64,000 bases of DNA from Octopus vulgaris (taxonomy: Eukaryota): NCBI GenBank assembly GCA_951406725.2, contig OX597815.1, positions 64,170,001 to 64,234,000 on the forward strand, written 5' to 3'. The translations under genes and the position numbers were made by a program. Of the stretch, positions 2,864-61,236 are shown one piece after another (position 1 is the stretch's first letter; the number at the start of each line of letters is the position of its first letter). The notes beneath the pieces were generated by a model. It did not search any database. It was given only the letters and a program-made list of their open reading frames with translations, and had not been told where the DNA came from.

Positions 2864-2972
2864 TTAATCAGTTGTTGAGTGGCCCACTCATAAGGGAATG
2901 ACGCTGAATGTGTTTGAAACAATCATCGTGATTAACAATAAATTCTCGTACATCTCCCGTCTTTCATTTGAC
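2864..2972 (+). mobile_element. Degenerate HHR-bearing Penelope-like repeat; inverted partial copies at 3148-3228 and 3669-3749
   Basis: ttaatca-gttgttga...tttGAAACAATCATC-gtgattaa (stem I ttaatca/tgattaa, decayed core); the other two copies read gtcGAAACAATCGTCgtgattaa on the minus strand. Confidence 0.55.
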
Positions 2973-3369
2973 ATATATATATACACATTATATATATATA
3001 TATATATATATATATATATATGTATGTATATATACATACATTATATGTACGCACATACACACACACACACACACACACACACACACACACACACACACAC
3101 ACACACACACACACACACACACACACACACACACATATATATATATATGGCAAATGAAAGACGGAAGATGGAATATAAGAGAATTTATTATTAATCACGA
3201 CGATTGTTTCGACACATCTATCGTCGATATATATATATATGCAAATACAATAAGAGGCTTCTAAATAGGAAAGCCTTGTGCTAGAAAGAGCAATAGAAAA
3301 CTTAGGATATACAGGCAGTTAGTTTTACATGTGGATCTGGCTGTATGTATATTTGATATCTAAAGGCTG

Positions 3370-3438
3370 TCCCACTGATGAAACTCGCCTTCAGCGAATA
3401 TATTTTTGCTGGAAATAGTTAGAAACCATGGTCTGGGA
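3370..3438 (+). ncRNA. Type I hammerhead ribozyme motif (stem II base imperfect)
   Basis: tccca CTGATGA aact..cagcgaa/tttgctg..agtt a GAAA CCATGG TC tggga; homologous to the minus-strand motif at 45020-45087. Confidence 0.7.
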
Positions 3439-3769
3439 AATTATTGAGATGGTAAACGTTTTTAATTTTCATTCCTTTCGAGAATTTATCTTTATTTGGT
3501 GGTTTTGAGTTTTCTACTGCTCTTTCTAGCACAAAGCTTTCCTATTGGGAAGCCTCTTATTGTATTTCTATGTGAATGATATATAGTCTAATTACTAATT
3601 CGTTTTTGTGCTAGGCCACTGGTAATAATAATTTCTTATTACCCTATTTTTATTTATATATATATATATGCCAAATGAAAGACGGAAGATGGAATATAAG
3701 AGAATTTATTATTAATCACGACGATTGTTTCCACACATCTAACGTCGAAATATATATATATATATATAT

Positions 3770-3958
3770 TGTTGAAAGTTATAGAAAAACAAAAAAACGA
3801 AGACAGGTGTATTAAAACAAGCACGAGTATTAGTTTGACGCTCGGAAAGGTGAGAAGGTCTTTTATGTTTCGAGCCTACGCTCTTCAACAGAAAGAAACA
3901 CGATGAACTAAACAGAGAGAGAATAAAAAAAAATCTTGTGGATTTAGCGGTCAGTCAT
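3770..3958 (-). mobile_element. (TA)n-bounded HHR-bearing repeat (motif 3859-3896, CUGUUGA core variant)
   Basis: Minus strand reads tcttt CTGTTGA A GAGC GTAG GCTC GAAA CATA aaaga; same family as 42290-42516 and 40585-40792. Confidence 0.7.
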
Positions 3959-4847
3959 ATATATTATACTTAACGAGAATATTGTTGACTGTGACTTTGA
4001 GGTTCCCGCTAGCCGGATTATTATCCGACGATGGCTTTGCTTGCCAAACTTCCATGCGACTCTCAACAATTTGTATTTGTACTCTACAAAAATATATAGA
4101 GTAACCCATTAGATTAATATAAACTTGTTTTTATTATTATAAATGAAAATAATATACCACCCATGTAACTTAGCGGTTCAGCAATAACGACAAATAATAA
4201 GTAGTGGGGTCGACTAAAGATCCTTCAAGGTGGTGCTGCAGCATGGTAGCAGTCTAAAACATATTATTACATTTAAATTTCTATCTTACAAACTGAAAAG
4301 GGAGCTTGACAAAATTAACTCAATTAGTATAGAATGATGGTTTCATATTTTCTTATAATTAAGACCTAAACTGTTAATATATATGAATGCGAAAGAGATA
4401 GTTGAATAACTGTAAACCTACTTTTGGGCCACTATATATATATATATATATATATATATATATATATATATATATATATATATATATATATATATATATA
4501 TATATATATATATATACATACATACATACATACATACATACATACATACATACATACATGCATACGCACACACACACACATACACACATATATACGCATA
4601 CACCTATGTACATAATGCATTCTCCGATTATCTGTCATTTGCCTGATTTTTTTTTTTTGTCTTTTGGTGTTTGTATTTTCCAGTTTTATGATCTCGAAAA
4701 ACTCAATAGAACTAACTACAGGAATTCTCTAGTGCTGTTAATGTCTCTATGGAAGCCAGAACTCCACAGTGATAAATTCTCTAAAGTCAAAAGTCATCTC
4801 GCGTATTGGCAATAATAATAATGATAATAATAATAATAATAATAATA

Positions 4848-5323
4848 ATTTTGTCTTGGTATAAAAGATGGGCTACAGCAAATATTCTGCTCAATACCAC
4901 AGATTTGCTTGTCAGTTGTTTGACCTTAACCAGTTGAGCATGTCCCTTAGTTGCTGACGATATGTGCATCTCTGATTATGAGCAGAAGTAGTGGGGGAGC
5001 ATCATAGCCATGTGTTGAGAGGGAGTCTTTGGGGTTTGAATAATTCACCTCTGGAAACATGGGTGGTTCTTTCAACATCCTTAAACAACCCTTATTCAGG
5101 GACCTTTTGAGCGGGATGGGCTACTCAACCTGAAGAAAATTCTAACTGGGCCCCACCTGCAAGGTCATGTGCTGTTTATCTTGATATGAGATCACCATGT
5201 CGCGCACATATGGTTGTGATGCATGTGCCTGGTGTACCTTTATCAGACGGGTAGTCATGATGGGTATACTGGGATTCGTATATTTTTACCCCAGTGCCAC
5301 TTTGATGGCATGCTCTCTCACTC
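4848..5323 (+). mobile_element. Non-coding interspersed repeat embedded in an (AAT)n array; second copy at 38185-38620
   Basis: About 350 bp clearly shared with 38263-38620 ('gtcttggtataaaagatgggctacagc...catatggt'); (AAT)n on both sides. Confidence 0.8.
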
Positions 5324-58130: not shown

Positions 58131-58372
58131 AAATTTAATTTGTCATACACTTCTTATTAGAAAGGTTTCATAGTTTTACAGCTTAACTTGAACGTAATTC
58201 GCCGATAGTCTTTAATTCTCCCGCGGTCTGTCTGAACTAAACTACGTTAGGTATTTTTTCATGAACTGACCATTCCACACACATACTTGTAATTTGCTAA
58301 AACTACAGGTATTAAAAAGATAAATTAAACTAAAATAAATCATCATCATCATCATTATTATCAACAACAACA

Positions 58373-58700
58373 AAGGCGTCAAGCTGGTAGAAGCTTTGAG
58401 TGTAGAAAAATGTTTTGCGGAATTTCTCCCTGTTGTATATTCTTAGTTCAAATCACACGGAGGTCAAATATAGTGATTTTAGAGTCGATAAAATGCAGTA
58501 TCAGTCAAGTACTGTGATCGATTGTATCGACTAACCTCTTCTCAAAAATAGCTGGTCTTGTACCTTTATGGTTATTACTTAAGACGGCGAACTGGCAGAG
58601 TTAAGTACTGGGGTTAATGTAATTGGACTACTGTCTTCCCTCAAAACTACTCGACCGTGCCAATAATTTGCCAATAATTAGAAAGAATTATCATTATTAT
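58373..58700 (+). mobile_element. Two decayed SINE family A copies, the second internally deleted
   Basis: aaggcgtcaagctggtagaa...gtcgataaaatgcagtatcagtc; aagacggcgaactggcagag-ttaagtactgggg. Confidence 0.6.
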
Positions 58701-60159
58701 CTGCTGCTGACTCTCTCATTTTGTTGTAAAAGCTTTCTCCATCGTTCCATATGTTTTTCGAATGTGAGGAAACTGATTTTCAGTCTGACTATTATTCAAT
58801 GAAGTGCATTCATTGATCCTTTTGGAATGTCTACCACGTACCGAGGTGATAAAATAAGGTCAGTTTATTTTCTGTTTTTTTTTTTAATATTTCTATTTCC
58901 TGTTTATTACATCGTTTAACTCCAAGACAAAAATAACTTCATGTTATATTGGAACCGCACCGATAAACTGCATTGAATAAAGCGACACACTTGAATACAC
59001 AAATAATCGCAACAAAGTTTTTGAAAATTACTATTTCAAGAAGAAAAGTAGCAAAACTAACTACACAATTAACAGCAACATCAATAATAATAAACATAGT
59101 TTGTCAAACGAAAGTTCGCAAACACTAACCACATCCCATATTCTGCAAGTGAACTTTCTAATAAGCAAACTTTGGATATGTAACACTTTCCTGAAAGCAC
59201 CAAAGCATGGCAGGATTTGGTTCGCAGGTCAAGCGCCTCTCTGCTTGACATTATCAAATAGTCATGCAAGAGGATGTGTGTATCTGTGCCTTGCCAAAGC
59301 CATAAAGTTTTCCTTTTTTTCATCCAAGGAAGACCTGGAGAACGCCCTGGCAAACATGTTAAGAAAATTTTACTTATTTGGAGTGAACGTGGGTGTATGG
59401 TTCTATATAAACCATCTTCAAAACCACAAAAGTCAAAAACGTATGAAGAACAGCAGCCAGTAACCTAGAGGAATACTAAGGTCACAATCAAAGCAATGGT
59501 GAGAGCATTAACCTTGGAGCGTGGTAATTCTGTATCACAATATGAGTAGGTGGTCAGGTGTGACGTAAATTTCATCGATGTGTAGATGCGGAGGTATAAG
59601 GCCACATGACTCGGTAGTACTACAAAATTGTACCAGAATTTTCCTCTGTAAAGGGTACTGAGAGAAAGGCCTTAAAACTCGACTTCAAGGGCAGGTAACT
59701 CAGCTGCTGCATGTGTGGCAGTAAAAGTCATTCAAGTGCTTTACCACCCAACATCTTAAAATAACAAACGGAACGTTGCTGGTTTTGGAGTAGATATCGC
59801 AACGCCAGACAGCTCACGGTCCAGCTCTGGCGCTGTCAGATTTAGCCATTCCTCATTACCAGGAGATAAACAAGAGATTCAAGTACTGCTTTTCAGTTAC
59901 AGTCAACGAAGACATTGAGAGCCATTCAAAACATAAACAACAACCGGAAGTGGTTAATGGAGGCGTTGACATCGGGGATGATAGCTCTGACTTTTTAAGG
60001 CCTTCACAGCAGTAGATTACATTCTTCCATTATGTCTGAAAATAAATGCTTATTTTCAGACATAATGGAAGAATGTAATCTAGCGTAATCTCAATTTGTT
60101 ATAAGGGAGGTCACATTGGTTTTTGTTTTATGCATGAACTGTTGCTTTGATGATTTCTT

Positions 60160-60392
60160 ATTTTTTTACTGCCCACAAGGGGCTAAACATAGAGGGGACA
60201 AACAAAGACGGACAAAGGGATTAAGTCGATTACATCGACCCCAGTGCGTAACTGGTACTTAATTTATTTACCCCGAAAGGATGAAAGGCAAAGTCAACCT
60301 CGGCGGAATTTGAACTCAGAACGTAACGGCAGACGAAATACGGCTACGCATTTCGCCCGGCGTGCTAATGTTTCTGCCAGCTCGCCGCCTTA
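60160..60392 (-). mobile_element. SINE family A, young full-length copy
   Basis: Minus strand aaggcggcgagctggcagaaacattagcacgccgggcgaaatg...ccccttgtgggcagtaaaaaaataag; same tail as the 12379 copy. Confidence 0.9.
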
Positions 60393-61189
60393 ATGCTTTG
60401 ATGATTTCTACGAAGCATTGATATAAACCACTTAATGACACTTTCGAAGAGGAATTAAAGTTCGAAACATGACATCTATACTATAATGGAGAAAGCTACT
60501 TATTAATTAGGCATGTAACAATTTATAATAGTATTAAAAGAAAGCAATTATTAAAGGGCTGACCGTCTGGAAATATTTTTATAAATTTGTATTCTAAAAA
60601 TTTCCTATAATTTCGATTTCTCAAATGTTTTAACTCCAATTTCTCGCAAATTTAAATATTCATCGCATTCATTGCGGAGTATTCCATTTTCATTTGCAAA
60701 GTCTCTCACTTACCCTTTGAGTTTTAATTAGCTATTTGGAAAAACCGACAGTTTATTCTATTAATGTATACGAATGTAAAAACATTCATTGAATCAATTT
60801 TTTTTTCAAATACTTGTATAATTTTTGATAGCTTGTGAGAAGAGCCTAGAAAGTTGAGTAATTACTATTATAAGACGAGGAGAAAAAGTTACCAACAAGT
60901 ACTCGAAACTTGCACCTTATTCACAGTTTCCAAACACTCTGTACCAAGCCAATACATACACAAACAAGTTGCACGAGCGATTTTAACAGTGACACACACA
61001 CACACACACACACACACACACACACACACACATACACACTCGCGCACACACACCAATACACACTCGCGCACACACATAGATACACATACACACAAATGAA
61101 AGGCAATGAATGTGTGTGTGTGTGTATGTGCGTGTGTGTGTGTGTGTGCTCACTGACAAAACTTCGTGCTGCATCACTTTTAAGAAGTT

Positions 61190-61236
61190 TGTCAGTGAAC
61201 AGGTCGCGGTCTGAAAGCGACGAAAACATTTTGACA
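61190..61236 (+). ncRNA. Minimal hammerhead ribozyme motif, G3-C8 variant
   Basis: tgtca GTGAACA G GTCGC ggtctgaaa GCGAC GAAA ACAT TT tgaca; preceded by an inverted copy of its own 5' end (61150-61165). Confidence 0.65.

Follow-up and report, generated by a model that had tools for sequence, protein, structure and literature searches.

What kind of element has scattered hammerhead ribozymes (HHRs) among the microsatellites of an octopus chromosome is the question raised by positions 64,170,001-64,234,000 of contig OX597815.1, a 64,000-nt stretch (the window) of the microsatellite-rich Octopus vulgaris genome (GCA_951406725.2, 2.8 Gb in 227 contigs). A reading made from the letters alone, referred to below as the sequence-only reading, had listed 21 sites here and described them as about 20 minimal HHRs of at least six families, mostly abutting microsatellites and belonging to a dense population of non-autonomous retroelements. 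Here, we find that these sites represent 17 loci, 15 of which are very probably the 3' ends, or pseudo-long terminal repeats (pLTRs), of Penelope-like elements (PLEs), each with a minimal HHR motif and likely inserted into (TA)n through target-primed reverse transcription by Neptune-type proteins.

Hammerhead motifs in the window

The minimal HHRs of metazoan PLEs have been recognized as a class since the work of Cervera and de la Peña in 2014 (PMC4209133), and a strict descriptor built on the features given there matched the whole window five times, at 10833+, 45740-, 47023-, 57232+ and 61195+ (positions count from the first letter of the window and mark the C3 core, from which the originally listed positions deviate by up to ~65 nt), compared with means of 0.15 and 0.22 in 200 dinucleotide shuffles each of the whole window and of 300-nt blocks. 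The excess was equally clear for a palindromic descriptor (six matches against 0.06 in 150 shuffles) and for one that tolerates up to two defects while keeping G10.1-C11.1 obligatory (ten against 0.72 in 60 shuffles), and a canonical descriptor lacking the extra nucleotide found only two sites. Rfam, at its gathering score, has no match in the window, and by E-value the hammerhead is absent among the best 150 of 601 window matches, in line with the expectation that such elements escape standard annotation.

When each of the 21 sites is inspected, the pairs 41403/41457, 45707/45764, 46990/47979 and 57172/57229 prove to be the head-to-head arms of single insertions, which reduces the list to 17 loci. 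These fall into at least eight families (A-F, H, I and the decayed 2864 type), and a microsatellite lies within 250 nt on the 3' side of 17 of the 21 sites, compared with 38% of 5000 random positions. The full fold, comprising the 3-8 pair, GAAA, stems I and II, a palindromic stem III and NUH, is present at five or six of the 21 sites (Table 1) and is common in copies across families A, D, E, F, H and I. Families A and D have U-A as the 3-8 pair, and B, C, E, F, H and I have C-G. Thus the comparison with shuffles, the diversity of families and the proximity to microsatellites all bore out the sequence-only reading, as did PLE-type minimal hammerheads targeted to TA microsatellites, whereas its total of about 20, although made up of real motifs, was an overcount, with two of the sites (61190 and 48362) doubtful.

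A short, loose descriptor may match AT-rich repetitive DNA by chance. This is a plausible origin for site 48362, where GAAA is missing and the core-like heptamer (48394-) has no homologue in 0.77 Mb of retrieved loci, and a possible one for site 61190, which meets the strict descriptor but lies 1401 nt from the nearest microsatellite, inside another repeat whose shared sequence reaches at least 700 nt on both sides; it has no PLE end structure, and its stem II closing pair is broken in several relatives. The large excess over shuffles, the fixed position near element ends and the compensatory stem changes refute chance for the 15 PLE-type loci, and for the set as a whole its probability is negligible. 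The repeat around site 61190 (window 60476-62920, its 3' limit being a guess) has 1726 candidates. Its 5' start is fixed, (CCCTAA)-like repeats lie inside it and a GC hairpin is present near 62895; it may be Helitron-like. Stem II of its G3-C8 pattern resembles that of family H, and the pattern is possibly a captured piece of a PLE.

Families A, C and D as ends of protein-coding elements

The longer copies of families A, C and D run into an open reading frame (ORF) for reverse transcriptase (RT) and GIY-YIG endonuclease (EN), and the nine window sites of these families are therefore 5'-truncated ends of RT + GIY-YIG PLEs. In family C, the 40 best genome matches are 99.5-100% identical, and 30 loci have 12-1500 nt upstream in common, including a 554-aa open frame with YIDD, C-x4-C-x2-C and YIGQT; homologues of this frame carry PF26215 in 97 of 97 cases, PF00078 (RT) in most and PF01541 (GIY-YIG) in many. 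Among 29 copies of A picked by tail alone, five reach upstream, 14 end no more than 17 nt into the short unit and the remaining 10 end deeper inside it. The upstream extension leads through a ~750-nt simple-repeat untranslated region (UTR) to the end of a GIY-YIG domain; the ORF part has 1403 genome candidates and contains RT motifs. Long copies of the A ORF show an inverted 5' arm in three of six stretches, and one A locus of 30 is a 155-nt triple. Family D has GIY-YIG remnants upstream (tblastn E ~5e-4), which are EN remnants only. A CX2-5CxxC linker precedes GIY-YIG in C, A and D, from which the proteins appear to be Neptune-type. A and D share variable 5' truncation, an inverted 5' arm and an optional tail, and C shares the truncation. 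The linked RT/GIY-YIG frames that the sequence-only reading had proposed to look for are thus found for A and C, and for D by its GIY-YIG remnants, so that its description of the whole population as non-autonomous fails for these nine sites and is retained for families B, I and E, which look non-coding. A candidate description of family A as a fixed 205-nt non-autonomous unit was an artefact of a biased query and was ruled out by the tail-only search.

Non-coding families and tandem arrays

Families B, I and E look non-autonomous, with no ORF link in the copies examined (E was not followed upstream genome-wide). Family B adopts a single geometry in 39 of 40 tail-selected matches. Its 235-nt hairpin is near-identical between loci, and the centre is constant in 41 of 41; the tail lies on the right, the left or both sides in 29, 10 and 2 of them, 24 of the 41 having been picked with a right-tailed query. 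A centre that stays constant as the tail side varies shows that it is templated. Folded whole, the B sequence is predicted to hold both HHR copies within one long hairpin (-124 kcal/mol). Young copies have lost the stem II closing pair, which older copies keep; in the older copies, too, each arm is cut at a point of its own and the centres vary. The constant centre and geometry, together with the predicted locking of both ribozymes in one hairpin, would suit DNA-level foldbacks resembling miniature inverted-repeat transposable elements (MITEs), in which B and the other palindromic copies move by cut and paste with HHRs as mere passengers; however, the asymmetric ends and the independently cut arms and variable centres of older copies are marks of reverse transcription, and we consider such an origin very improbable.

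Family I is a 503-nt unit that occurs as partial tandems with inversions and a 120-nt tail, reaching 2.6 units at one place, and its longest ATG frame at one locus is 81 aa; E has a 454-nt period in one locus and the same junction in several. Both are head-to-tail units with a type I HHR, I non-coding and E apparently so, which A, B, C and D are not, as A, C and D join an ORF and B is a foldback. Two tandem arrays with canonical type I HHRs were also present in 200 kb of arbitrary sequence (Table 1), with units of ~359 nt (seven motifs) and ~362 nt (three motifs), C3-G8 in one array and U3-A8 in the other, and no Rfam match at gathering score in either. Each array has a head-to-head inversion, a one-arm tail and (TA)n at both ends, which gives structural support to PLE-driven retrozyme mobility.

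These units bear on a rival that takes the original proposal further, in which all of the insertions are non-autonomous retrozyme-like elements whose spread depends on self-cleavage and circular RNA. The I and E units (503 and ~454 nt) fit it, with the family HHR intact and some copies exceeding a single unit, as do the two canonical arrays, and such units are known as retrozymes (accessible parts of PMC7229834 and 10.64898/2026.07.22.740005). Yet A, C and D, which account for nine of the 21 sites, continue into a PLE ORF, and for them the proposal is refuted; moreover, the window copies of A, B, C, D, F and H do not form tandems, only one of 24 truncated I pieces starts at the predicted cleavage site, and the youngest families, B and C, carry damaged HHRs. 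For the whole set it is improbable. Among sequencing runs, none recorded as RNA was listed as containing these sequences. Families B, C and I are covered by contigs of four runs whose RNA origin is a guess, and a 504-nt contig among them is self-closing, which tandem DNA explains equally well; neither was used as evidence.

Tails, inversions and the route into (TA)n

In the insertions read here as PLE ends, the HHR motif lies 60-300 nt inside the end, and the arms are often head-to-head, with a tail of 30-120 nt on one arm only. Arm ends cluster at ~145 and ~200 in A, at 82 and 152 in B, and at 501 and +120 in I, and the stretch between two such fixed points is usually on one arm only. Across 19 pairs, the two arms of the same A insertion share 46 of 191 rare variants, compared with 7.7 expected, which, together with arms cut at independent points, supports dual priming and the joining of cDNAs. 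Similar behaviour is described for a PLE of the anole (accessible part of PMC11167929), whose RT starts at two internal sites that bound the tail; this element prefers AT-rich DNA, where both target strands undergo cutting and extension, and its HHR mutants retain the ability to insert. Self-priming has been proposed for such junctions (PMC3846280, in its accessible text) and may be their origin here.

The likely route into (TA)n would accordingly resemble target-primed reverse transcription by Neptune-type RT + GIY-YIG proteins, in which the endonuclease would cut TA repeats and both target ends would prime at two internal RNA sites, the stretch between them becoming the tail; the two cDNAs would then stop independently and join at their 3' ends, producing the inversion. 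Families B, I and E would rely on these proteins as non-autonomous passengers. Cleavage by the hammerheads may be weak and take place in dimers or with the aid of a protein. Since the two youngest families carry damaged HHRs, the ribozymes are likely not needed for insertion.

A further clue to the RNA comes from the 5' ends of family A. Among 124 arms, 34 begin at one exact base, 13 nt before the core, and 59 begin within -5 to +6, while none begins between +16 and +37; 30 of the A loci were picked with a query containing the hot-spot end. In the window this base is 57219, and the predicted cleavage sites lie after 57261 in A and after 42100 in I. The base before the hot spot is C in eight of eight long copies, and the base before the other non-palindromic A junctions is G in 23 of 39; at each of the next three positions the figure is 4, 8 and 9 of 39, in a tally that includes one locus twice. 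Untemplated 5' G in L1 and SVA has been attributed to cap copying (PMC3287187), and the Penelope element of Drosophila has an internal promoter in the corresponding region (PMC2377424), in the accessible parts of both papers. The pile-up, mostly with a non-templated G, suggests a capped start inside the pLTR, and the short A copies would reproduce in full a capped RNA beginning there; alternatively, the G may be templated in a subfamily. Four of the 26 arms that start beyond +16 begin, by eye, at the predicted cleavage site (+45) or at a point that fits it, which hints weakly at cleavage. Family D showed no such hot spot, its starts being scattered; a loose cluster of them around one motif was not counted.

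A broader proposal, which we hold as possible rather than probable, is that the short copies record the PLE reaction itself, through a capped start in A, a foldback parasite in B and a fold used by the protein in C. The protein would prime internally on the 5' repeat of A and copy only 145-200 nt up to the cap, and stopping there would explain both the mass of solo pLTRs and the inverted 5' arm typical of PLEs. The minor group of A 5' ends at the predicted cleavage site would then be a trace of cleavage in vivo, and B would be a MITE-like 235-nt foldback parasite whose single hairpin locks up both ribozymes; in the active C lineage, with its paired stems and U6 core, the fold may now serve protein binding over cleavage.

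Core variants, stem covariation and points against

A6, taken as invariant in the hammerhead core, is replaced by U in 16 of 16 rows of the C lineage, where position 7 takes all four bases; changes at A6 reduce hammerhead activity according to the accessible parts of PMC3088659 and PMC7151607, the latter part not naming A6U. Loci L123, L208, L012 and L101, which belong to the C-related family or are older copies of B, have U4C cores. Variants of the A6U or U4C kind may already be listed in Lünse et al. 2017 (RNA Biol 14:1499).

In an alignment of 30 copies of C, the C-related family and F, from which duplicates and rows without the HHR region were excluded, 90.3% of stem cells are paired, compared with 24-46% in slid controls, and two-sided changes number 33 against 12.4 in shuffles. 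Covariation of the stems, which the sequence-only reading had asked for within families, is thus seen between related families, with clear limits. Several points must indeed be set against the PLE interpretation. Two of five covariation measures failed to beat the shuffles (383/500 and 495/500), the signal consists of two to three lineage-level changes among related rows, and the F rows were picked by a pattern that presupposes part of stem II. A local Pfam scan of the C ORF returned no families, the assignment of A, C and D to the Neptune type was made by linker motif and not by tree, and none of the longest A, C or D copies retrieved is a full-length pLTR-ORF-pLTR element. For B, E, F, H and I our searches found no partner protein (the genome-wide search upstream did not take in E, F, H or the 2864 type). 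Lastly, the partner arm is the nearest neighbour in only five of the 19 A pairs, so subfamily structure or later conversion may account for part of the sharing.

Inventory and density

Table 1. Hammerhead-bearing insertions and related features. Positions are those of the window, except in the last two rows; signs after cores give the strand.
Feature	Positions	Strand	Core	Structure and state
Decayed long-loop HHR-like 3' end	2820..2972	+	near 2832+	Decayed
Ends related to 2864 type	3146-3225, 3667-3746	-		Related ends
E-related copy (~73%)	3243..3660	+	3375+	Inverted arm 60 nt; tail; mismatched stems, stem I 5 bp, stem II closing pair lost
Older C-lineage 3' end	3775..3930	-	3891-	A6U, fixed in lineage; 5' limit unmapped
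D-related 3' end	10660..10915	+	10833+	Complete U3-A8 fold; ends at (TA)n; 5' limit approximate
Family F	18865..19015	-	18999-	Old, 72-89% to relatives; stem I broken in copy
Family H	21270..21545	+	21351+	Short inverted arm; tail; stem I broken in copy
Older B-lineage foldback	32481..32606		32539+	Both arms tailless; centre and HHR rearranged
C-related family	40590..40800	-	40724-	A6 kept; G12A in copy
Family B fixed foldback	41300..41524		41436-, 41461+	Inverted HHR arms, fixed centre; 65-nt tail on - arm; (TA)n both sides; intact copies 235 nt; 41436- complete save for 2-bp stem II; 41461+ decayed or cut short
Family I	41592..42250	+	42036+	Partial tandem of 503-nt non-coding unit, retrozyme-like; complete fold, stem I 7 bp, loop II long, palindrome 4 bp
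Family C	42289..42511	+	42385+	5'-truncated 3' end of young RT + GIY-YIG PLE; A6U, fixed in lineage
Family E	44880..45540	-	45084-	Partial tandem, ~454-nt unit; inverted 5' arm; mismatched stems (two mismatches)
Family A	45615..45950		45740-, 45767+	Head-to-head arms bounded by flanking (TA)n; - arm tailless, complete U3-A8 fold; + arm decayed or cut short (read as decayed), tail ~55 nt
Family D	46900..48073		47023-, 47982+	Head-to-head arms; - arm with tail, complete U3-A8 fold; + arm tailless, H17=G
Site 48362	48360..48400	-	48394-	Core-like heptamer without GAAA; unsupported
Family A	57172..57362		57232+, 57204-	+ arm begins at 5' hot spot, complete U3-A8 fold; short inverted arm decayed or cut short, ends just past cleavage site; (TA)n both sides
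G3-C8 HHR-like pattern	61195..61241	+	61195+	Inside different, longer repeat; doubtful
Tandem retrozyme-like array	L031:2097-4768 (G000:C1)			Canonical type I HHRs
Tandem retrozyme-like array	L038:8470-9660 (G000:C6)			Canonical type I HHRs

First-look searches of the genome returned 1452 candidates for A, 1074 for B, 877 for C, 1646 for D, 1274 for E, 24 for F and 1993 for I, figures that are not copy numbers. Family H was defined from chance copies among the retrieved loci; its last 60-90 nt (window 21470-21545) are common to the A tail at 75-79% identity, and H may therefore use A-like proteins.

The density proposed by the sequence-only reading, about one element per 3 kb, was somewhat high for the window itself, where 15 PLE-type loci amount to one per 4.3 kb, and too high for the sequence outside it, although the diversity of families it described is real. 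In 20 arbitrary 10-kb stretches (200 kb), homology probes located 15 elements, which form 14 clusters, two of them through probes taken from the sample itself, which gives a lower bound of ~1 per 13-15 kb, decayed copies included, and makes the window look denser than average. The palindromic descriptor matched this sample 12 times, against 0.2 in shuffles, with ten of the 12 matches in the two tandem arrays.

Other features were seen between these insertions. At window 8655-8880, a short UTR comes after the C-terminal end of a GIY-YIG-like frame; this is probably a further truncated PLE, absent from the original list; a 29-aa query from 8655-8741 found only four weak further matches. On the minus strand, 33660-36852 holds a non-LTR retrotransposon at (ATT)n, with a 724-aa RT frame (RVT_1) followed by a 282-aa frame, and a second fragment of it lies at ~36960-37755. 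Also on the minus strand, the ORFs at 11000-14870 include broken pol fragments, presumably LTR-retrotransposon-like.

Relation to known systems and significance

That hammerheads occur at PLE ends is already known. The octopus motifs share with the class of PMC4209133 the type I form, the extra nucleotide after A9, G10.1-C11.1, the palindromic stem III stub and U3-A8 variants, as well as opposite-strand pairs, mostly solo copies read as truncated PLEs and many families per genome. They differ in that the ORF link has been traced for three families and in the fixed A6U lineage and U4C relatives; the densities do not compare directly, as our ~1 per 13-15 kb counts decayed copies and theirs are descriptor hits. 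With the EN+ PLEs of Neptune type, as treated in the accessible part of Craig et al. 2021 (10.1101/2021.04.23.441226), they share an RT followed by a C-terminal GIY-YIG, the CX2-5CxxC linker, microsatellite bias, an inverted 5' copy, a one-end tail and partial tandems, whereas the octopus tails measure 30-120 nt rather than 30-40 and the simple-repeat 3' UTRs are long (~750 nt in A). The same source describes a non-autonomous PLE with pLTRs and head-to-tail copies, MRC1 of Chlamys.

The PAc element (Poseidon) of Anolis carolinensis, in the accessible text of Frangieh et al. 2024 (PMC11167929), likewise has two RNA end points ~60-200 nt 3' of the HHR, AT-rich targets and an HHR retained in the inserted copy; its HHR overlaps the ORF start, however, while that of the octopus elements, known from sequence alone, follows a non-coding 3' UTR. 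Finally, I, E and the two arrays resemble non-LTR retrozymes (PMC7229834 and 10.64898/2026.07.22.740005, as far as accessible) in being head-to-tail 350-500-nt non-coding units with type I HHRs, but the arrays bear the PLE marks of inversion, one-arm tail and (TA)n at both ends, and B is a fixed foldback rather than a tandem. In the main text of the preprint (10.64898/2026.07.22.740005), the link between PLEs and retrozymes is drawn from co-occurrence and pLTR similarity only.

A literature search that left subscription journals and Repbase mostly outside its scope returned no description of the octopus families, of a cap-derived G in PLEs or of a fixed foldback, nor, with Lünse et al. 2017 outside its scope, of a fixed A6U core in a young PLE lineage; the supplements of PMC4209133 and 10.64898/2026.07.22.740005 may list cephalopod families or core variants. 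What appears to be new is the pile-up of A 5' ends with a non-templated G, the fixed foldback of B and the fixed A6U of the C lineage, including its near-identical young copies.

Extrapolated from the 200-kb sample, the genome would hold roughly 200,000 such insertions unseen by Rfam or ORF-based annotation. It offers a test bed for how PLEs form their inversions and tails and for whether the ribozyme matters, and useful material for both questions in its young families (99.5-100% identical copies and an open 554-aa ORF part), natural substrates of 150-235 nt, a mapped candidate start site and natural core mutants.

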